Assembly: GCA_963792585.1 (NCBI GenBank)
Contig: CAWBWI010000006.1
Location: 928,001 to 992,000 of the forward strand
From: Candidatus Eiseniibacteriota bacterium
GTDB lineage: Bacteria; Eisenbacteria; RBG-16-71-46; CAIMUX01; VGJL01
Length of the DNA: 64,000 bases
Direction of reading: 5' to 3'
Shown here: positions 35,437 to 47,257 of the stretch, one piece after another
Layout: the number at the start of each line of letters is the position of its first letter
Position numbering within the stretch: position 1 is the first letter of the stretch
Translations under genes and position numbers: made by a program
Notes under the pieces: model-generated
Seen by the model: only the letters and a program-made list of their open reading frames with translations
Told to the model about the DNA's origin: nothing
Databases searched by the model: none

Positions 35437-37101
35437 CTATTTTGTCGATCGGGTGGAAGCGGTGGTTTCGTCGAGAATTCGCCGCAAGATCGCTTCTGCG
35501 ACCTGCGGCAGGACCTGATCACCGCCCTCGGGATCGTCTGACAGCGTCTGTGCTGCGCGGTCGAATGCTTCGACGTGAGCGCGCATTCCATCCTCATCGA
35601 TGGCGTGATTCGGTTTTGCAAGAGACTCGGGGAATGGAAACGCTTCGATGTCGCGCCGACCGAGCGGGATGCTGCCTCCCGAAAGCGCCTGCGGACCGCG
35701 TCGCGTGCGGTGGATCGATGTGAGCCAGTCGCTGTTGAGGAGCAAGCCCGCGCGTAACAACATACGCTCTGCATCCGGCCCATCCCCGCGCGCGAGGAGC
35801 ATCAAGGTCCCGACCGATCCGGCGCAGCGTCCACGGAGATCGCAGCGCGCCCTGAGAGATCTCGACAACCCCGCCACGATGAGCTTCGGCCGATCGAGGA
35901 ACGCTCTTCGGTTGCGCGAAAGCCCCGGCGCCTCACGCGGCAGGACGGGTCGCGCGAACGTCCGCCCAAGGTAGCGTGCCGGAGCATGGCCCCATCGATC
36001 CCCGTGACGAACGATCAACCCGGCCGTGAGGAATCGCCAGCCCTTGCCGTCCTCCTGCAGGGAGTCCCTGATGGCATAGGCTTCCGACACCGTCATCGAT
36101 GCGCGCACGTCGAAGAGATCCCCGAAGGTCAGATGACGTTCGAGATCCGCGGTTTCCCCACCGCATTCCGGATCGAACAGCGCGCCCCAGCTCGTCTCCT
36201 CCAGGCGCCCGGGCGGGACTTCCCACAGGAGCTCGCCGTCCTCTCTCGTGACCGCCACGCAGCGGGGCGCCGGGCCCGAGCCGCCGATCACGCCGACCAT
36301 GGCGATCCCGCATTCCGGCGCCGGACGATCCCCGGGGAAGAGAACAAGCCTCCGCAGGGGCGACTCGCGCGCGAGCAGACGGCGCAACGGCGTCGCGTAG
36401 CGCGCGGACAGGAGCGCCCGGGGCGCCAACAATGCATAGCGGCCGCCGGGCGCGAGAAGCTGCGCCGCCAGGTGGACGAAGAGGACGCTGCGGTCGTACG
36501 GCCCGACCGCGGTCTCGGGAAAGCGTTCCTTCAGCTCCCGGCGCCCTTCTCCCGAACGGCCGGTCCGCTTCTCGATCGCGTTTCCGAAGGGAGGATTCCC
36601 GCAGACGAGGTCGAACGCTCCGTCCGCGGACGGCTCGAAGGAGCGGAGTGCATCGCCCCAGAGAATTCGGCGCGCGACGAGCTCCGGGTCTCGCACGGCA
36701 CCCGCATTCCACAGCGCCAACCTCGTGAGCGCAACCGCCACCGGATCGATGTCGACTCCATGGAGCTCCACCTCGGGGCCGAACAAGCTCCAAGCCTCCT
36801 CGAGAAAGACGCCCGCCCCCACGGCCGGATCGAGGATCCTCCGAGGACGCAGGCCTTCGTCCGCGGCGCGGGACAGGAGCGCTCGCGCGACGGTCCGCGG
36901 CGTCAGGTAGAGGCCGGTCGCGCGGCGGTCGGGGCGGGAATCGAGCCACGCGGACACGAGGTCGGTCGTTGTCGCCGGCGCTGCGGCGTCGCCGGCAACC
37001 GGCGCCGGGTCGAGAGTCGGGGGCAATCCGTCGCAGAGCAGAGCGGCCGGGACATCCGCCCCGGCACGTTCGCGCAGGATCCTCAGGATGGACAGGTCCA
37101 T
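35437..37101 (-). CDS. N6-adenine DNA methyltransferase (gamma/Eco57I-like), no adjacent endonuclease
   Basis: YLTPR, ILDPAVGAGVF (motif I), GVDIDP, GNPPF (motif IV). Confidence 0.82.
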   Translation of the reverse strand: MDLSILRILRERAGADVPAALLCDGLPPTLDPAPVAGDAAAPATTTDLVSAWLDSRPDRRATGLYLTPRTVARALLSRAADEGLRPRRILDPAVGAGVFLEEAWSLFGPEVELHGVDIDPVAVALTRLALWNAGAVRDPELVARRILWGDALRSFEPSADGAFDLVCGNPPFGNAIEKRTGRSGEGRRELKERFPETAVGPYDRSVLFVHLAAQLLAPGGRYALLAPRALLSARYATPLRRLLARESPLRRLVLFPGDRPAPECGIAMVGVIGGSGPAPRCVAVTREDGELLWEVPPGRLEETSWGALFDPECGGETADLERHLTFGDLFDVRASMTVSEAYAIRDSLQEDGKGWRFLTAGLIVRHGDRWGHAPARYLGRTFARPVLPREAPGLSRNRRAFLDRPKLIVAGLSRSLRARCDLRGRCAGSVGTLMLLARGDGPDAERMLLRAGLLLNSDWLTSIHRTRRGPQALSGGSIPLGRRDIEAFPFPESLAKPNHAIDEDGMRAHVEAFDRAAQTLSDDPEGGDQVLPQVAEAILRRILDETTASTRSTK

Positions 37102-37120
37102 GGCGGACCAGTCTAGCCGC

Positions 37121-38008
37121 TCAGTCGAGGAGAATCAGCTTCGTACTCCGCACGCCCGCGGGCGATGTCAGGCGGGCCAGGTAGATACCGCTCGACGCGC
37201 CGGCAGCATTCCAGACGACCTCGTGGGAGCCGGCGGGAAGGGTCCCGTCAGCGAGCGTGGCGATGCGGCGTCCCTGAAGATCGAGGATCTCCACGCGCAC
37301 GTTTTCGGACGCGGTCAGGAAGACCGCGAACGTCGCGCGTCCCACGCACGGGTTCGGACCCACGGCCGAGATGCGCGCCGGCGCATCGTCCACGGATGCG
37401 GGCGGGATCTGGGGACAGTCGTTGTGCCCGGGCTGAAACCACCGAATCACGCCGAAGTTCTCGCAGAGGTCCTCGTTCGGCGGGTCTGCGTCGTCAAAGA
37501 ACTTCGCCTGGTTCGTGCTCGGGTAGCTTCGCGTTGCGAAGTAGTTCTCCGGTCCGTCGACGAACGTAGCAAACCAATAGAGGCGGATGAGGCGTTCATG
37601 GACCGGGGAGCCAAACGTGACGATGTTCCCGAATCCGGTCTCGGGCCAGCCGGGATCTGGAGACTCGGTTGGCGAGGGCCCGCAGACTCTCCAATTGGTG
37701 AAGTACCCTTGATCAGCGGGGATATTGTGGTCGATCCCGAATTGAACCGTGGTCACGGCGGGCGAAGCATCCGGCAGAAACGCCGCCATGACCCAGATGA
37801 TCTGTTCCTCGTCGATCCCTCGTCCAGCGGCGGCATTCAGCTCCTCACACGTAGCGGGAAGGGTCGGAGTACTGCACCAGTACGCGCCGTCTCTGTACTG
37901 CACCGTGTCGTCGGTGTGCACCACGAGAGCACCGTTGGCATTGCGCCCGGCGACTGCGGGCGGGGCAAGAAGCATCAGAAGCACGATCGAGGAAATCAAC
38001 ATTCTCAT
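37121..38008 (-). CDS. Secreted hypothetical protein with T9SS-A/FlgD-like C-terminal domain
   Basis: Signal peptide; AGRNANGALVVH; tail PNP...LDLQGRRIATL...SGIYLARL; GGAGGT RBS. Confidence 0.85.
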   Translation of the reverse strand: MRMLISSIVLLMLLAPPAVAGRNANGALVVHTDDTVQYRDGAYWCSTPTLPATCEELNAAAGRGIDEEQIIWVMAAFLPDASPAVTTVQFGIDHNIPADQGYFTNWRVCGPSPTESPDPGWPETGFGNIVTFGSPVHERLIRLYWFATFVDGPENYFATRSYPSTNQAKFFDDADPPNEDLCENFGVIRWFQPGHNDCPQIPPASVDDAPARISAVGPNPCVGRATFAVFLTASENVRVEILDLQGRRIATLADGTLPAGSHEVVWNAAGASSGIYLARLTSPAGVRSTKLILLD

Positions 38009-38098
38009 AGCGACCTCCTGAGCCCAGTGGGTTCCCTTTGCAGCGCGTCTATTGTATCACCCCCCCCCCAAGTCGAGGTCAAGGAGGATAAAAGGAAG

Positions 38099-38138
38099 AC
38101 CCGGGGAGCCAATGTCCTCTAGGACAGGTCCCCCGGGC
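38099..38138 (-). terminator. Conserved GC hairpin downstream of paralog 1
   Basis: CCCGGGG...GTCC-tcta-GGAC...CCCCGGG followed by a pyrimidine/U tract on the minus strand; homologous copies follow paralogs 2 and 3. Confidence 0.6.
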
Positions 38139-38187
38139 CATAAGCCGGCCCCCGCTGCGGAGCAAGGCCGGCAGGTGTCGGTTCGAC

Positions 38188-40230
38188 TTACTTCAGTAGA
38201 ACCATCTTCTCCGTGCGGACGCCGTCGGCCGTCGTCAGCCGTGCGAAGTAGACGCCGCTCTCAACCGGCTTGCCGCCGTCCGAGATGCCGTTCCAGGTCT
38301 GAACGTGCACGCCCGGAGTCATCCGGCCGCTCACGAGTTGCGTGACCTTGCGTCCGCCCAGGTCGAATACCTCCAGGCTGACCGGACCGTTCGCGCCGAC
38401 CGGCGACAGCGTGAAGCTGATCTCCGTCTTCGGGTTGAACGGGTTCGGACGCACCGCGTCGATCCGGGTGGTGAACAAGACGTTCCCGTCGGGCGCATCG
38501 GCCGGAGGCGCCGGATGCAGCCAGTTCAGGATGCGGCCGAGCAAGAACTTCTGGTTGTTCGGATCCGCGTCGGTCGCGCTGACCGCATGGAAGCAGGCCG
38601 GCATGAAGACGACCTTCGCGTCGTTGTACACGTTGTGGATCAGAGCGTTCGAATTCTCGTTGCCGAGCAGACCCGTCACCGCCGTGTTCGGAACCGCGTT
38701 GTCCCCCTTGTTGAACGAGGGGAACTGGAAGGACAACGGCAGGTTGAACCCATCGCCGATCGGATCGCCCACGACTCCGAGGAGGCTCGTGTAGCCCGTG
38801 TTGAGCGTCCAGGACGCGATCCCAAGATAGTTTTGCGTGAAGTCGCTTGGCGAGGTGCTATCCAGGAACGACTGACTCGTGAAGTAGAGACTTCCCCCCC
38901 CGTCCACGAACTGCATCATCAACGCTTGGTCACCGGCGTCCGGGGGAGTGGAGGTCCGGTACCCGGTCTCCCAGATCATGATGTCGAAGCCCTGGACGTT
39001 CGCGTACGAAGGTGCCGTACCATTGTGGACGTTGTTGATGTCCCACTGCTCGTAGAGGTAGCCGAGCTGGTTCAACGCCGTCGTCCAGATCCCGCTGCCT
39101 CCACCGGTGGAGCTGCTGTCGTTGATCAGATAAACGGCGTAGCTGCCGTTGAACACCCGCATCGACTTCGTCTGGACCCTACCCGAGGTGTTCGATGTGA
39201 CGTTGAAGCCGCCCGTCCGGACCGCGACCGTCCCGTTCGTGTGAACGCGAACGGTGAAATCACAGGTCCCGTTCGGGGGCAGTGTCACCTGGGTGGGCGC
39301 CGTGTGCGGATTCGGGTCGCCGCAGACCAGGAAGTCCGTCGTCCAGTCCCCGAACGCCGCGCCCGGCTCGAGCGTGAAGATCTGGTTCGAGGCCGTCAGG
39401 TTCCAGAGCTGCCCGGTGAAGGTGGCTGTGCCGTTCCCCTCCGGGACCGACTTGACCTTCACTGGATAGTAGAGCGAGAAGTCCGGAGCCTGGCCCGCGC
39501 CGATCTTCTGCGCCTGAATGACTTCCTTGGTCGCCGTCGATTGGAGGTAAGCGATTCCGACCAGGTTCGCCGGCACCCATGAGCCGATCGAGACGTTGGT
39601 CGAGATCGTCACCTCGTCGCCGACGTTGGTCAGCGTGACGTTCTGGTCGTAGATCTTGCGGGTGACGCGGTCCCAGTGGTCCACGCCGCCGTAGCCGCAG
39701 CACCAGGTCAGATCGTCTTCGTAGAGCAGCAGAGTGCCGCGCAGGTTGCTGAGCTGCACCGGGTCGACCAGCTTGAAGGTCGCCGACATCGAGGCGACCC
39801 CGGCGTTGATCGTCATGCTGGAATTGATGACGACCGGGCTGGCGCCATCGGTTGCGGCGATCCGCGCGTTGAGCCCGTTCCGGTAGCTGACAGTTTGGTT
39901 TGGGCAGACATCCGCCCCGACGAATTCCGAGATCCCGTCGATCTCGACCGTGGGGAATCCGTCTATGCCGTAGAAATTCTGCCTGGCCGTGGTCTCCGTT
40001 GTCGTGAACGGGTCCGTGCCGGAGCAGTGGTTTTCCCAGTGAACGACCTGGTTGCCGAACTCGGTCTCCATCGCATCGCACGCGCACCGCGCGCGAGGAC
40101 AGTACGTTCACCACGTGGCCCCGAACTCCTCGATGGTCATCACCTTGGGCACGCTCGCCAGAGCGGCGGGCACGACCAGCGCTCCAAGCATCAGGAGGAT
40201 CCCGATGAGAGCGGCAAACTTCCGTTGCAT
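38188..40230 (-). CDS. Putative secreted selenoprotein paralog 1: Omp28/thioredoxin-like UxxC domain + FlgD-Ig tail (Sec41 = TGA at 40108-40110)
   Basis: Track ORFs 40108..40290 and 38188..40071 are in frame across one TGA: MQRKF...EEFGATW-U-TYCPRARC...GFPTVEIDG; GGAGGT RBS; signal peptide; 680 aa on readthrough. Confidence 0.85.
40076..40096 (-). promoter_or_regulatory. Putative bacterial SECIS (paralog 1)
   Basis: UCGCGCGC-GGUGC-GCGUGCGA, 8-bp stem; 19 nt lie between the UGA and the loop. Confidence 0.75.
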
Positions 40231-40439
40231 GGCACCTCCAAGTGAAGCGAAGCGGCCGACCCAGTAACCGAACCATGTCCATAAGGACATTCCTGGAGCA
40301 AACTGAGATTATTTTACACTAAATGGGTCGATGATCTGACCACAATCTACTGCACTACATCAGGCTACGGTCGGGGTGGTCCCGCGGGAAACGGGATCAT
40401 CCGGTGGGTTTTCGGTGCCGAAACGCGCCCAAAAGGAAG

Positions 40440-40480
40440 GCCCGGGGAGCCCAATGTCCTCTGGGACAGGTCCCCCGGGC
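40440..40480 (-). terminator. Conserved GC hairpin downstream of paralog 2
   Basis: Homologous to 38099-38138; followed by CTTCCTTTT on the minus strand. Confidence 0.6.
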
Positions 40481-40529
40481 CATGAGCCGGCCCCCGCTGC
40501 GGAGCAAGGCCGGCAGGTGTCGGTTCGAC

Positions 40530-42564
40530 TTACTTCAGTAGAACCATCTTCTCCGTGCGGACGCCGTCGGCCGTCGTCAGCCGTGCGAAGTAGACGCCGC
40601 TCTCAACCGGCTTGCCGCCGTCCGAGATGCCGTTCCAGGTCTGGACGTGCACGCCCGGGGTCATCCGGCCGCTCACGAGTTGCGTGACCTTGCGTCCGCC
40701 CAGGTCGAAGACCTCCAGGCTGACCGGACCGTTCGCGCCGACCGGCGACAGCGTGAAGCTGATCTCCGTCTTCGGGTTGAACGGGTTCGGACGCACCGCG
40801 TCGATCCGGGTGGTGAACAAGACGTTCCCGTCGGGCGCATCGGCCGGAGGCGCCGGATGCAGCCAGTTCAGGATGCGGCCGAGCAAGAACTTCTGGTTGT
40901 TCGGATCCGCGTCGGTCGCGCTGACCGCATGGAAGCAGGCCGGCATGAAGACGACCTTCGCGTCGTTGTTCACGTTGTGGATCAGAGCGTTCGAATTCTC
41001 GTTGCCGAGCAGACCCGTCACCGCCGTGTTCGGAACCGCGTTGTCCCCCTTGTTGAACGAGGGGAACTGGAAGGACAACGGCAGGTTGAACCCGTCGCCG
41101 ATCGGATCGCCGCACGACTCCGAGGAGGCTCGTGTAGCCCGTGTCGAGCGTCCACGATGCGATCCCGAGGTAGTTCTGCGTGAAGTTGTTCGGGACGTTG
41201 TTCAGGGAGTTCAGGAACAGCTGGCTCGTGAAGTAGAGGCTTCCCCCCGCGTCCACGAACTGCATCATCAACGCCTGCTCGCTCGCGTCCGGGGGGCTGG
41301 AGGTCCGGTACCCGGTCTCCCAGATCATGATGTCGAAGCCCTGGACGTTCGCGTACGAAGGGGCGGCTCCGCTGTGGACGTTGTTGATGTCCCACTGCTC
41401 GTAGAGGTAGCCGAGCTGGTTCAACGCCGTCGTCCAGATCCCGCTACCTCCACCGGTGGAGCTGCTGTCGTTGATTAGGTAGACAGAGTAGCTGCCGTTG
41501 AACACCCGCATCGACTTCGTCTGGACCCTACCCGAGGTGTTCGATGTCACGTTGAAGCCACCCGTCCGGACCGCGACCGTCCCGTTCGTGTGAACGCGAA
41601 CGGTGAAATCACAGGTCCCGTTCGGGGGAAGGGTCACCTGGGTGGGCGCCGTGTGCGGATTCGGGTCGCCGCAGACCAGGAAGTCCGTCGTCCAGTCCCC
41701 GAACGCCGCGCCCGGCTCGAGGGTAAAGATCTGGTTCGAGGCCGTCAGGTTCCAGAGCTGCCCGGTGAAGGTGGCTGTGCCGTTCCCCTCCGGGACCGAC
41801 CTGACCTTCAGCGGATAGTAGAGCGAGAAGTCGAGGGCCGGAGCCGAGCCAATCCTCTGCGCCTGGATGATCTCCTTGGAGACGGTTGACTGCAGGTAGA
41901 CGACCCCAACCAGGTTAGCCGGGGACCAAGAACCAATCGGCACGTTTGCAGCGATGGTTGCTTGATCACCCACGTTCGTCAGCGTGATGTTCTGATCATA
42001 GATCTTGCGCGTCACACCGTCCCAGTACTCGCCACCGTTGAGGACGTTGTCCTCGTAGAGCAGCAGCGTTCCGCGAAGGTTGGACACGGAAACAGGGTCG
42101 ACGAGGGTGAAGGTCCCCGACATCGACGCCGTGCCTCCTGCTATGGACATCGACGCATTGCTGATGAGTACAGGGCTCACCCCGTCGATGGCGGCCAGTC
42201 GGCCGTTGATGTCCGTTCTATAGATGCTGGCCATTGCCGAGCATGTGCTCCCGCCAACCTCCTGGATGATTCCGTCGATCCGAACATCCGGAACACCACT
42301 GACGCCATACCAGTTGGTCCTGGCGATCGTCTCCGAGGTGGAAAGCGTTCCCGACGTGTGGAGCTCCCAATGCGCCATTCGCGTGGGACCCATTTCATCT
42401 TGCACCGTCTGCAGCCCGCACCGGGCCGCTGGGCAATAGGGTCAGGTCGTGTACCCAAACTCCTCAGCCATGATGACCCTGGGCACGCTCGCCAGAGCGG
42501 CGGGCACGACCAGCGCCCCAAGCATCAGGAGGATCCCGATGAAAGCAGCAAACTTCCGTTGCAT
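40530..42564 (-). CDS. Putative secreted selenoprotein paralog 2 (Sec41 = TGA at 42442-42444; 1-nt frameshift near 41113)
   Basis: MQRKFAAFIG...EEFGYTT-U-PYCPAARC...GVPDVRIDG in frame with ORF 40603..42405; one extra base versus paralog 1 (GTGCGGCGAT vs GTGGGCGAT) shifts the C-terminus into ORF 40530..41078. Confidence 0.8.
42411..42429 (-). promoter_or_regulatory. Putative bacterial SECIS (paralog 2)
   Basis: GCGGCCC-GGUGC-GGGCUGC, 7-bp stem with the same loop and spacing as paralogs 1 and 3. Confidence 0.72.
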
Positions 42565-42654
42565 AGCACCTCCCCTATAACGATCTGACCACCAAGAAGA
42601 TAGAGCCGGTTCCGTCGAGCCGGCCTGGAGACATCACGTACCAATTATAAGGGA

Positions 42655-42670
42655 TATGAAACGTTTCACA
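42655..42670. promoter_or_regulatory. CRP-like box upstream of paralog 2
   Basis: TATGA-AACGTT-TCACA, one mismatch to TGTGA-N6-TCACA, in an AT-rich intergenic region. Confidence 0.5.
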
Positions 42671-42699
42671 AACTCGGGATAACCAAATCGAAAAAATGA

Positions 42700-42736
42700 C
42701 CCGGGGGCCTCGTCCTCTGGGACGCAGACCCCCGGG
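42700..42736 (-). terminator. Conserved GC hairpin downstream of paralog 3
   Basis: CCCGGGGG...GTCC-tctg-GGAC...CCCCCGGG followed by a T6 tract on the minus strand. Confidence 0.65.
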
Positions 42737-42785
42737 CTGAACCGACCCCGGCCTTATTGGGCGCAGGATCAGCAAATGCCTCCGA

Positions 42786-44839
42786 TTACTTCAGCAGGAC
42801 GAGCTTGGTCCCCTGCTTCCCCTCGACCGTCGTCAGGCGGGCGAAGTAGACACCGCTCTCGACCGGCTTGCCGGCATCGGAGAGTCCGGCCCAGGCGACC
42901 GTATGGTCCCCCGGGGTCGTCCTTCCCTCGTACACACCGGCCACCCGGCGACCGGCCATGTCGTAGATCTCGAGGCGGACCGGTCCATCCGCTCCGCGGG
43001 GAGAGACCTGGTAGAAGATCTCGGTGCGCGGGTTGAACGGATTCGGTCGGACCGACGAGATCCTCGAGGCGAGGATCGAACCCGGGAGGTCATCGACGTC
43101 CGCGGGAGGCGCCGGCTGCAACCAGGTCAGGATCCGTCCGAGGACGGTCTTCTGGTTGTTCGGATCCGGGTCGGTCGGGCTGATCGCATTGAAGACCGCA
43201 GGCATGAAGACTGCCTTGGATCCCCGCCCAACCACGTTGTGAAGAACCGCGTTGGATCCCTCGTCCCCGAGCAGCGAGGTGACCGCCGTCGCCGGATTCG
43301 CGTTGTCCCCCTTGTTGAACGAAGGGAACTGGAACGAGAGCGGCAAGGTGAGGCCGTCGCCGATCGGGTCCCCCGCGACGCCGTTGAGGGTCGTGTACCC
43401 CGTGTCGAGCGTCCAGGTGCCGATTCCGAGGTAGTTCTGGGTGAACGCGTTTGGCGTCCCGACGGAGTTCAGGAAGTACTGGCTGGTGAGGAACAGGCTC
43501 CCGCCGGCATCCATGAACTGCATCATCAACGCCTGCTCGGGGTCTCCCGGCAGAGCGTTCGACCGGTAGGCCGTCTCCCAGATCATGATGTCGAAGCCCG
43601 AGACATCGAGCCAGCCCGGCGGGGTGCCGCTGTGCTGGTAGGCGATATCCCAGCGGTCGTACAGGTAACCGAGCTGATCGAGCGCGGTCGTCCAGATCGC
43701 GGAGTGCTCGGTGTTCTGGTTGTTGTTCACGAGGAAGACCGCGTAGCTGCCGTTGAACACACGCAGGTTGGACGTCTTCACGTCTCCCGAGTTGCTCGAT
43801 GACGCTTCGAACGCTCCCGTCCGGATCTGCTTGGTCCCATCCGTGTGGACGCGGACCGTGAAGTCGCAGGACTCGCCGGCGGGGACGCTGATCTCAACCG
43901 GCGCGGTGTGCGGGTTCGGATCGCCGCAGACGAGAATCTCGCTCGTCCAGGTCCCGAGACCCGTGGGCGGCGTGAGCGTGAGCACGTCGGCGTTGAGGCC
44001 GGTGTTCGTGATCTGTCCCGTGAAGACCGCCGTTCCATTGCCGGCCGGGACGGAGTCCACGAAGTTGGCGAAGGTCATGCGGAAGTCGTAGGGACGGGGC
44101 ATCCGGTAGCCCTGGATGATCGGGGTGGTCCCGGTCGTCTGCTGGAGGTAGGCGATCCCCGTCAGATTGTCCACGTTCCAGTTCGGGTTCCGCGGGACCG
44201 TGGTGGACACCGTGACCTGGTCACCGACGTTGGTCAGCGTGATGTTCTGGTCGTACATGTCGCGGGTCACGCGATCCCAGTGGCTCACGTTCCCGTATCC
44301 GCAGCACCAGGTGATGTCGTCCTCGTAGAAGAGAAGCGTCGCGCGGAGGTTGGTCAGGGTGACCGGGTCGACCTTGCGGAAAGTCGCAGAGTAGATGATG
44401 TCGGTCGCCGTGGTCTGGAAGCTTCCCGTGATCTCCACAGGACTTACGTTGTTCGTCTCGTTGAATCGCGCGTTCAGCGCGTTGCGGTACAAGACCGTCG
44501 TCGTGGGGCAAACATCCGCGCCGATGAACTCGCGGCTGCCGTCGATCTCGATCGTGGGGTAACCGGACGTACGCCGTACCAGTTCGCACGAGCCGTCGTC
44601 TCGGTCGTGGTGAAGGGATCGTTGCTGGAGACATGATGGCTCTCCCAGTGAATGACCCGATCACCGAACTCGATTTCCATTGCTTCGGACGCGCACCGCG
44701 CCCGAGGGCAGTACGTTCACCACGTCGCCCCGAATTCTTCGATGATTGCGACCTTCGGCACGCTCGCCATGACTGCGGGCGCGAACACCGCCCCGAGCAG
44801 GAGCAAGATCCCCCCGAGGGCTGCGAACTTTCTGAGCAT
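42786..44839 (-). CDS. Putative secreted selenoprotein paralog 3 (Sec41 = TGA at 44717-44719; frameshift near 44570)
   Basis: MLRKFAALGG...EEFGATW-U-TYCPRARCASEAMEIE in frame with ORF 44474..44680; after YGV the homologous GYPTIEIDG...YRNALN continues in the frame of ORF 42786..44492; GGAGGT RBS; FlgD-like tail. Confidence 0.8.
44685..44705 (-). promoter_or_regulatory. Putative bacterial SECIS (paralog 3)
   Basis: UCGGGCGC-GGUGC-GCGUCCGA, 8-bp stem with a compensatory C-G to G-C swap versus paralog 1. Confidence 0.75.
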
Positions 44840-44988
44840 GACACCTCCCCAAGCTGCATCCGACTGTGGTCACACATACGCGGAAGCCGATCCAGAGGAC
44901 CCGATCCAGAGGATCCGCTCCAGATGACGCCCTTGAATTCTACCATATCGAATGCCTGGAATTGAAGGATGTAGAAGCACTTATATCG

Positions 44989-45004
44989 TGTGAAACTCAT
45001 CACA
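44989..45004. promoter_or_regulatory. Consensus CRP-type box upstream of paralog 3
   Basis: TGTGA-AACTCA-TCACA, exact TGTGA-N6-TCACA, 150 bp upstream of the start. Confidence 0.6.
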
Positions 45005-45190
45005 TATGTGGTTTTCGCTCATCCTCCGTCCGCTGAATGTCCCGGGGTCGCAGTCCTCGGACGGCACGTCGCGACCGGGACTCTGCGTCGCGGTCCATCC
45101 CGCAGTGCGCCGCCGGCTCCACAATCCATAGGGTGCTGCCCGGGACCTTGGCTAACCACTTGAAATCGCGCGGGATCGAGGGCCCCCTTC

Positions 45191-47257
45191 TTGAGGACGG
45201 CCGAAGGCCCTGCTAGTCTGGGCGCCTGGACGAAGGAGCACGATGAACTCGCCGATGATCTCGGATTCCGCGCCGCCCGCAAACCGGCCCTCCGGTTGGC
45301 CATCGCCATCCTGGTTCTCTCCTCGGTGCTGCCCTATCTGAATGCTCTCCGTTGCGGCTTCGCATTCGACGACCAGCTCCTCGTGGCGCGCCACAAGGTC
45401 GTGACCGGTGCTTTCGCGCCCCTTTCCATTCTGGCGGCTCCATACTGGGAGGCGATCCGAGAAGCGCTCTTGTGGCGGCCGGTGACCACCTTCTCCTTCG
45501 CGATCGATTGGCATCTCGGAGGAGGAGGCGCCGCATGGTTCCACGCGGTCAATATTGGATTGCACGCGATCGTGACGCTGCTGTGGGCCTGGCTCGTATT
45601 GCGGATCACGAGTCGTCGCGCTCTGGCGCTGGTCGCAGGAGCGCTCTTCGCGGTCCACCCGATCCACACCGAAGCGGTGACCTGGATTTCGGGGCGGGCG
45701 GAGCTGCTCGCTGCGGCGTTCGGACTCGCGGCCGTGCACCTCGCCTGGTCGCGTTGGCGATGGCTCACCCTGCCGGCCGTGCTGCTCGCCGTTGGATCGA
45801 AGGAGAGCGCGGCGGCCTTGCCGTTGATCCTGCTCTATCTGAGTTGGGCCTTGCGCGGGAGGCGCGCCGATGCCCCGTCATGGCGCCTCGGCGTTGCCGC
45901 GTTCGCGCCGGTCGTGCTGTTCGTCGTCCTGCGTCGCGTCGTGCTCGGGACATGGGGCGGCCCGAGCCCCGATCCGATGGACAATCCGATGAGCGGGCTC
46001 GGACTCCTCGCGCGGTTGCCGACCGTCCTGGATGCGGCGGGGCGTTATCTGGTTCTGCTCATCTGGCCCGCGCGGCTGTCGATCGACTACTCCGCGCCGG
46101 TTCTGGGGGTCGTGCGCGGCCTGACGCCGCTCCTTCTCATGGGGCTCGTCGCGTCGGTCGGTCTCGTCTTGCTGGCCATCCGGCGTCGCCGCGAGCCGGA
46201 AGGGTGGGGCGCCGGGTTCGCGCTCCTGAGTTTCGCGCTCGCGTCCAACCTGCCGGTGGTGATCGGCACCATCTTCGCCGAGCGCCTCCTCTACCTTCCC
46301 TCGGCGGGGTTGCTCCTCATCGCCGTGTGTGGAGGTTTCGCCCTCACCCGTCAGCGGGTGCCCGCGCGGGCGCTCCAGGCGATCCTCGCAATCCTCATCC
46401 TTGCCGGCGTCGCCCGTACATGGACCCGTAACCGCGATTATCTCGACGAGGCGACGATGTATGCGGCCGGAGTGCGTGTCACCCCGAATAGCCCCAAGAT
46501 GCGCTTCAACCATGCGCTCGCGCTCAACCGCCAGGGCCGGCATGAGGATGCCGTCCGCGAGGGAATCGAGGCCATCCGCCTGAACCCATCGAGCCGCGAA
46601 GCACGTGATGTCATCGCCTGCTCGCTCGATTCGCTCGGCAGAGGAGAGGAGGCGATCCGCTTCCTCCGTCGCGTTCTGATCGAAGATCCGGGAGACCGCG
46701 TTTCGCGAAGGAAGCTGATCACCCTGCTCGAGAAGCGCGGCCTGCTCGACGCGGTCGATTCCATCGCCACCGCGGGGGTGCGAGGCGATCCGGACGAGCC
46801 CGAATGGGTGGGGCGGGCCGCGAAGGCCGCGCAGGATCGGAGGGACTACGCGCGCGCGGCCGAACTCTGGCGCGAGGCCTTGCGCCGCTCGCCGGACACG
46901 GTCGACGTTCCGCTCTACCTCGCATTCTGCCTCTACAAGCTCGGGGACATCATCGGCGCACGGGACGCATACCGCGAGGCGTTGCGTCGCTCCCCCGAAT
47001 CGGCGGACGCCGCGAACGGGCTCGCCTGGGCCCTGCTCGAAACCGGCGGCCCGGTGGACGAGGCAATCCGCCTCGGGGAACTGGCGACCGCGAAAGCGCC
47101 GCAGGGCGCGAACGGATTCGACACTCTGGCCCGCGCCTACGAAGCGGCGAGACGATGCGCCGACGCGATCCGCGCCCAGGAGCGGGCGATCGAACTCGAT
47201 CCGGCCAATGCGTCGTACCGTCAGAGACTCGCCGCGATCCGGCAACGCTGCCGGTAG
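45191..47257 (+). CDS. TMTC/DUF1736-like GT-C membrane protein with C-terminal TPR repeats (start uncertain)
   Basis: FAFDD, WRPVTT, FHAVNIGLH, HPIHTEAVTWISGRAELL, SKE, AERLLYLPS, then TPRs. Confidence 0.85.
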   Translation: MRTAEGPASLGAWTKEHDELADDLGFRAARKPALRLAIAILVLSSVLPYLNALRCGFAFDDQLLVARHKVVTGAFAPLSILAAPYWEAIREALLWRPVTTFSFAIDWHLGGGGAAWFHAVNIGLHAIVTLLWAWLVLRITSRRALALVAGALFAVHPIHTEAVTWISGRAELLAAAFGLAAVHLAWSRWRWLTLPAVLLAVGSKESAAALPLILLYLSWALRGRRADAPSWRLGVAAFAPVVLFVVLRRVVLGTWGGPSPDPMDNPMSGLGLLARLPTVLDAAGRYLVLLIWPARLSIDYSAPVLGVVRGLTPLLLMGLVASVGLVLLAIRRRREPEGWGAGFALLSFALASNLPVVIGTIFAERLLYLPSAGLLLIAVCGGFALTRQRVPARALQAILAILILAGVARTWTRNRDYLDEATMYAAGVRVTPNSPKMRFNHALALNRQGRHEDAVREGIEAIRLNPSSREARDVIACSLDSLGRGEEAIRFLRRVLIEDPGDRVSRRKLITLLEKRGLLDAVDSIATAGVRGDPDEPEWVGRAAKAAQDRRDYARAAELWREALRRSPDTVDVPLYLAFCLYKLGDIIGARDAYREALRRSPESADAANGLAWALLETGGPVDEAIRLGELATAKAPQGANGFDTLARAYEAARRCADAIRAQERAIELDPANASYRQRLAAIRQRCR

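Follow-up and report, generated by a model that had tools for sequence, protein, structure and literature searches.

Candidate SECIS hairpins under RNA-level selection behind the in-frame UGA codons of tandem thioredoxin-like genes in an Eisenbacteria genome

The window analysed here, a 64,000-nt stretch of the Candidatus Eiseniibacteriota bacterium assembly GCA_963792585.1 (contig CAWBWI010000006.1, positions 928,001 to 992,000), carries three tandem paralogous genes, g1, g2 and g3, each with an in-frame UGA followed closely by an RNA hairpin. The hairpins are very probably canonical bacterial selenocysteine insertion sequence (SECIS) elements: each would bind SelB and the selenocysteine (Sec) tRNA, the ribosome would read the UGA located 20 bases upstream of the loop as Sec, and the product would be an exported protein with a UxxC motif (U, Sec) in a thioredoxin fold. 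The hairpin lies within the coding sequence, and its letters would double as codons of A-R-C-G/A, such that the RNA would fix synonymous positions of Arg (CGG) and Gly (GGG), and the Ala codon would flip between GCC and GCG in step with a Gly/Ala switch at residue +9 from the UGA. Directly observed are the sequence itself, its conservation and covariation, the loss of the signal in Cys-encoding genes and the Sec machinery of the genome. The features in question, in positions of the window, are as follows.

38188..40230, minus strand: g1, 680 aa if TGA is read as Sec, motif U-T-Y-C
40108..40110, minus strand: in-frame UGA of g1, the predicted Sec of UxxC, aligned with Cys in 36 homologues
40076..40096, minus strand: candidate SECIS hairpin of g1, GUG loop at 40087-40085
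40530..42564, minus strand: paralogue g2, motif U-P-Y-C
42442..42444, minus strand: in-frame UGA of g2
42411..42429, minus strand: candidate SECIS hairpin of g2 (from sequence and RNAfold)
42786..44839, minus strand: paralogue g3, motif U-T-Y-C
44717..44719, minus strand: in-frame UGA of g3
44685..44705, minus strand: candidate SECIS hairpin of g3 (from sequence and RNAfold)

Each of the genes, which begin at 40230, 42564 and 44839, has a Shine-Dalgarno-like GGAGG and encodes a hydrophobic leader, and their TGAs fall within thioredoxin-type motifs (W-U-T-Y-C in g1 and g3, T-U-P-Y-C in g2). The TGA of g2 was seen again in contigs from two independent DNA runs and one RNA run; the contigs of the RNA run cover the three genes but are uninformative on transcription or its level, and no inference on either is drawn from them. 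In this assembly, the frame of g2 is shifted by one extra base near 41113 and that of g3 by two extra bases near 44568. The extra bases are absent from contigs of a ~96-97% identical strain (four runs), and cysS is likewise split across frames in this assembly; judging from these sequences, both frameshifts are likely to be assembly errors.

An earlier, sequence-only reading of the window had described 7-8 bp stems with an identical GGUGC loop behind all three UGAs and proposed that they form a lineage-specific SECIS. The stems are present letter for letter in all three genes, with GGUGC beginning 19 nt past the UGA. In the RNAfold structures, the first G of GGUGC pairs with its last C, yielding a 20-nt spacer, a 3-nt GUG loop and a stem of 8-9 bp, with energies of -18.0 to -19.7 kcal/mol over 48 nt and of -13.9 to -14.4 for the stem alone. 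The stems of g1 and g3 differ by a single double change (C15-G29 to G15-C29), whereas those of g1 and g2 differ by three Watson-Crick double changes (13-31, 14-30 and 18-26), one C-G pair replaced by G-U and one single change. None of the Rfam covariance models matched within 37000-46000 at E<=1. Because the lone folds are barely better than those of shuffled sequences, three related copies are insufficient to settle whether the hairpins are SECIS elements.

We therefore turned to the whole family. An earlier scan for relatives had given one Cys-type locus, and the relatives were then taken from a genome search, in which the N-terminal domain was matched in 41 of the 61 genomes, among them every one of the 34 that belong to the same family or order. 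Alignment of 153 hits, 152 of which cover the site, left 149 family members after the removal of 3 duplicates; this set comprises nearly all of the matches listed, 31 further matches lying outside it. Among these 149, the site column holds TGA in 113 (from 37 genomes) and Cys in 36, and the source genome itself contributes five TGA copies and two Cys copies. A generic SECIS rule (spacer of 15-28 nt, loop of 3-7 nt with an early G[G/U], at least 5 pairs and at most -5 kcal/mol) is passed by 94 of the 113 TGA rows, 1 of the 36 Cys rows and 0 of the 7 Cys rows nested among Sec genes, compared with about 5% of the controls (42/950 terminal TGAs and 324/6030 random TGAs). The GUG loop stands at the family register in 87/113 TGA rows, and G[G/U] occupies +21/+22 in 89/98 Sec rows outside a divergent group, type-B, which is described below. 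Thus, the family-wide evidence for the hairpin exceeds chance.

The synonymous positions are particularly informative. Among the 101 non-type-B Sec genes, Arg at +7 (n=94) is encoded by CGG in 87 cases, CGT in 5 and AGG in 2 and never by CGC, although elsewhere in the same genes CGG accounts for 31% and CGC for 44% (330/742) of Arg codons. Similarly, Gly+9 is GGG in 66/69 rows versus 315/1585 (20%) elsewhere in the same genes, whereas codons +1, +4 and +10 are free to vary. With Gly+9, Ala+6 is encoded by GCC in 59/60 rows; with Ala+9, by GCG in 17/22 rows. The underlying pair, +18/+26, has the synonymous Ala position on one side and the Gly/Ala switch on the other, and in the 99 ungapped rows of the main type (type-A) it is C-G in 63, G-C in 26, U-G in 1 and unpaired in 9. 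The covariation score of 0.203, versus 0.097 for shuffled alignments, was exceeded in 0/500 shuffles, and the structure outscores 500/500 shuffles and all six slid registers both in covariation score and in paired cells. In a quick phylogeny of 146 of the 149 rows, from which the SECIS codons were left out, the pair flips between C-G and G-C 7 times, and 6 independent pairs agree in direction (median p 0.031, range up to 0.125). The compensatory changes first noticed in the three window genes are thereby upheld on a larger alignment (99 sequences) and on the tree. Seven Cys genes nest within the Sec clade and six of them have lost the loop G; this loss of the loop signal in Cys homologues supports the SECIS assignment. 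Taken together, synonymous sites, covariation, phylogeny and Cys controls all indicate, at the level of sequence, that the hairpin is selected as RNA.

Several observations weigh against this assignment. The generic rule is failed by 19/113 TGA rows; the single-sequence folds of the window genes lie within chance when compared with dinucleotide shuffles (z = -1.31, -1.15 and -1.48); against synonymous shuffles, the mean z is -0.86 for Sec rows and -0.37 for Cys rows, a modest gap; and RNAalifold yields no consensus structure on the 99-row type-A alignment. The three outer pairs of the 8-bp stem are unpaired in 53-57 of the 99 rows, leaving a 5-bp core that is kept family-wide, and true covariation is confined to one core pair, the other core pairs hardly varying. 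Furthermore, three Cys genes encoding ARCA retain the stem letters and have lost the loop G alone, and the independent-pair test gave no significant association of Sec with the loop G (p 0.125, 5 pairs). The weak folding scores, the lack of an RNAalifold consensus and the stem retained in the ARCA genes would all suit an alternative in which UGA does encode Sec, with the hairpin arising incidentally from conserved Ala-Arg-Cys-Gly/Ala codons in a GC-rich sequence and the true signal located elsewhere or unneeded. The Cys of Arg-Cys (+8) fits this alternative as well, since a structural disulfide with Cys84 probably keeps it in place: in 74 rows Cys24 is accompanied by a Cys near position 84, in 27 both are missing and 1 row is discordant. 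Protein constraint is, however, powerless over third positions, and yet CGG is used in 87/94 cases with no CGC, and GGG in 66/69; the synonymous Ala codon follows its partner through all 7 flips; and where Ala or Ser replaces Cys+8, the loop still starts with G-G or G-U. Given that the codon test largely refutes it, we consider the by-product explanation improbable. The caveat of the sequence-only reading that the loop overlaps conserved Arg-Cys codons was half right, because UGC is held by the protein and CGG by the RNA; the identical GGUGC reflects the Arg-Cys codons of the family combined with an RNA constraint.

Decoding as Sec, which the SECIS assignment implies, is matched by the gene content of the source genome (84% complete): selA, selB and selD score above their cut-offs, a 96-nt tRNA-Sec is present, and selD itself contains a TGA followed by a G-C-closed GGA loop at 20-nt spacing. 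Across the genomes searched, selA was found in 57/61, and in 45/45 of the high-quality ones. That the hairpin directs insertion of Cys rather than Sec, through a SelC*/tRNA-ReC system of the kind described in some genomes (PMC13582414), is very unlikely: the incompleteness of the genome and a 92-nt tRNA-Cys(GCA) listed by ARAGORN would leave room for it, but the genome has a normal tRNA-Sec, selA and selD, and a single selB locus and a single cysS locus were found. The 92-nt candidate was rejected as an artefact (no CCA end, poor arms, antisense within a long open reading frame), and no credible tRNA-ReC was found in the genome, at 84% completeness. Finally, despite the many indel errors of the assembly (g2, g3 and the split cysS), it is hardly conceivable that the genes are pseudogenes whose TGAs are genuine stops or sequencing errors, or that UGA is reassigned genome-wide. 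The conservation of the site (TGA at the same column in 113 genes of 37 genomes) refutes this explanation, the g2 TGA is confirmed by independent runs, and TGA also serves as an ordinary stop, terminating 950 long coding frames and the paralogue p5.

With the UGA read as Sec, g1 encodes a predicted signal peptide, an Omp28/HBP35-like thioredoxin and immunoglobulin (Ig) domain, middle domains and a C-terminal tail resembling those of the type IX secretion system (T9SS). The T9SS type A C-terminal signal model TIGR04183 scores 37.2 on g1 (cut-off 23) and is also above cut-off for g3; as for the T9SS machinery, PorU is above cut-off in the genome and SprA is present in sub-threshold pieces. The AlphaFold model (102 sequences, pLDDT 98) matches HBP35 (Foldseek E 5e-12, TM 0.77), a Porphyromonas gingivalis protein with measured thioredoxin activity (PMC2907840). 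HBP35 (PDB 5y1a, the top structure match) shares the arrangement of thioredoxin domain, Ig-like domain and C-terminal secretion domain but has Cys where the window proteins have the predicted Sec, at 17% identity. Hence, the three proteins are likely to be exported thioredoxin-like proteins and, by analogy with HBP35, most likely function as surface or periplasmic thiol-disulfide oxidoreductases; export and redox activity, like SelB binding and read-through, are here predictions from sequence.

The best NCBIfam match is NF045500 (Omp28-related selenoprotein), which scores 54.4 bits on full-length g1 and 38-75 bits on the N-terminal domains of seven relatives, below its cut-off of 200, and has no match above cut-off anywhere in the genome. 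NF045500 corresponds to GOS_C according to Table 1 of PMC13188914, and PMC2398784 had predicted GOS_C to be a family of UxxC selenoproteins; the same UxxC in a thioredoxin-like fold, with Sec at the first position, is found here. By contrast with NF045500/GOS_C, the main clade of the window family has an extra Cys pair, the long form carries about 300 additional middle residues and a T9SS-like tail, and individual genomes hold as many as 6 TGA copies (among rows fetched), in tandem arrays. The window proteins form a branch of the known Omp28-related (GOS_C) UxxC selenoproteins that is expanded in this lineage and carries T9SS tails. Named database homologues come from Candidatus Eisenbacteria, except for one from Latescibacteria, and are labelled as T9SS-domain or hypothetical proteins. 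The read-through form is longer than most of them: of the 37 proteins recovered from the database, 34 span <=92% of the query region, many being ~50 residues shorter. A search of the open-licence literature for Omp28 in connection with selenoproteins, and for selenoproteins of Eisenbacteria, gave no hit.

In the bacterial SECIS (bSECIS) consensus (Zhang and Gladyshev 2005, as given in Fig. 2A of PMC13188914), the apical loop has 3-9 nt, the upper stem 4-16 bp and one of the first two loop positions is G, mostly G followed by G/U; the UGA lies 16-37 nt from the loop and the minimum free energy is <=-7.5 kcal/mol. The window hairpins agree with it in loop and stem size, loop G, spacing (20 nt) and energy, and SelA, SelB, SelC and SelD, expected of a genome using bacterial SECIS, are all found. 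Relative to the consensus as presented there, the hairpins share the location in the coding region just 3' of the UGA, the 3-nt loop starting with G-U and the N1-N2 closing pair, and show no structural difference; they stand out for the depth of evidence available within one family (113 genes, 7 compensatory flips). This agreement does not sit with a lineage-specific SECIS, nor do the 16 other candidate Sec genes of the genome, whose loops vary, none being GGUGC, and whose spacers measure 16-28 nt. These 16 were chosen by visual inspection of 629 coding-like TGA sites, in part for their hairpins, and their fit to the SECIS rule is therefore no independent test. The suggestion that the hairpin could be used as a probe for more selenoproteins also failed: TGA-N19-GGTGC plus stem retrieves only the five TGA paralogues of the family and two out-of-frame chance hits (7 genomic sites versus 1-6 at other offsets), and a hairpin-only probe of the genome showed no enrichment at the family spacing (166 sites versus 124-189 at other offsets). 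A covariance model built from the hairpins, R1, scored 45-56 bits on the three window sites and 15.9 on the next, and was rejected as a SECIS probe, since Cys homologues score up to 40.8 bits and the selD hairpin is missed; it acts as a profile of protein-coding sequence rather than of SECIS. The hairpin is thus an ordinary bacterial signal specific to a protein family, not a new lineage-wide code. A close parallel is provided by the Group 4 [NiFeSe] hydrogenases (PMC13582414), in which the loop G is retained by Sec forms and lost, often by synonymous change, from Cys relatives whose stem stays similar, and Sec arose more than once. The window family resembles them in the loss of the loop G from otherwise similar stems in Cys relatives but is a different protein family, and the words 'covariation' and 'compensatory' do not occur in the main text of PMC13582414.

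The type-B group consists of twelve TGA genes (motif R-A-A/T-S-G-I-E-A/V-N) located inside a mostly Cys clade. Their hairpin differs from that of the main clade, lying three bases further on and having a 7-nt loop; its pairs are kept in 71/72 cells, and one of them swaps between U-A and C-G (6 and 6) at two synonymous positions. An approximately unbiased (AU) test on 53 rows rejects joining type-B with 16 sampled main-clade genes (p 0.015), the group having been defined only after the tree was seen. These sequences suggest that Sec was likely gained twice in the family; the tree is unrooted, and repeated loss of Sec may account for the same pattern. One type-B gene (L120:333-380, plus strand) has a TAG two codons past the TGA and may be a pseudogene or contain a sequencing error.

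On balance, we lean towards a broader picture in which Sec would have entered the family on two or more occasions, each gain coming with a separate SECIS inside the coding region, and in which RNA pairing and the Gly/Ala switch of the main clade would co-evolve repeatedly. In this picture, the three genes would belong to a much larger set of exported, as yet uncatalogued selenoproteins of the lineage, homologues of which are named Candidatus Eisenbacteria; among its members would be a beta-propeller with CxxU and a non-consensus hairpin loop, a beta-helix protein with CEYGU and a barrel-like protein with GCGU. The genome holds at least about 20 candidate selenoprotein genes. Besides selD, ten of the 16 candidates resemble known selenoprotein or redoxin families, with varied scores, several below cut-off, and a looser SECIS rule turned up three further candidate families. 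The candidates are listed below by locus.

L139-L143, L148, L150, L154, L155, L159: TGA plus hairpin; TlpA-like, TUGYCR redoxin, BCP peroxiredoxin, rhodanese, AhpD-like, SelL-like, ArsM, UshA-like, MerB-like and HesB-like
L145:412-2106 (G000:C3:452022, TGA), plus strand: beta-propeller, likely secreted, T9SS-like tail, C-x-x-U-G-H-G-D-D
L156:955-3099 (G000:C5:182532, TGA), plus strand: beta-helix protein, likely secreted, L-C-E-Y-G-U
L144:823-1842 (G000:C6:198400, TGA), plus strand: protein that we read as barrel-like, G-C-G-U directly behind the leader, at 5 kb from selD
L151:340-1488 (G000:C5:179642, TGA), minus strand: MetE-like enzyme, F-M-U
L136:775-1644, plus strand, and L137:1338-1964, minus strand: two small secreted paralogues, U then Y-D-W
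L138:780-2642 (G000:C2:244034, TGA), minus strand: thioredoxin-like segment with W-P-Y-T-U, joined to a TlpA domain with CxxC

The beta-propeller family has one TGA in 10/10 matches (35 genomes), at the same site in 5 of the 6 loci fetched, those matching the pattern. Its hairpin, ~25 nt past the TGA, is conserved with compensatory changes, the early loop G is missing in some members, and no NCBIfam selenoprotein model matches; this is possibly a new selenoprotein family with a non-consensus SECIS. In the beta-helix family, 16/17 matches (35 genomes) contain TGA, the exception being a fragment short of the site, and all 6 members examined have it at the same site, followed by UGGCC and then G[G/U] at 20-nt spacing; no NCBIfam selenoprotein model matches, and the TGA may instead mark a gene boundary. 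The barrel-like protein, with no Pfam or NCBIfam match, has TGA in 5/11 matches and Cys in four close ones with a weaker hairpin, and its gene adjoins the MetE-like TGA gene in four relatives. The MetE-like family itself, with TGA in 9/11 matches and a conserved hairpin, is missing from Table 1 of PMC13188914, and we found no report of a selenocysteine-containing methionine synthase family in the open-licence literature. The U-Y-D-W paralogues have TGA in 16/17 matches and a conserved GACUG/CAGUC hairpin, and L138 has a GGUC loop at 18 nt.

The SECIS mechanism is textbook knowledge, and the hairpin in itself will not surprise a specialist. Nevertheless, the annotation of over a hundred genes is corrected, and the family offers an unusually clean natural dataset, in which RNA and protein constraints act on the same letters, with two SECIS solutions and several Cys reversions, that could be used to test which positions SelB needs. 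The lineage appears to have many likely exported selenoproteins, several in families unmatched to the catalogue, and these additional families may outweigh the hairpin finding in value.

Two further observations concern the organization of the tandem array. The 3' two-thirds of g1 and g2 (38188-39480 and 40530-41815) are 87-100% identical and the thioredoxin domains 61-82% identical, which may reflect a recent duplication, or gene conversion, accompanied by diversification of the catalytic domains, or else a partial assembly collapse. Inverted repeats downstream of g2 (40440-40482) and g3 (42699-42738), likely terminators, have the internal word TCCTCTGGGAC in common.

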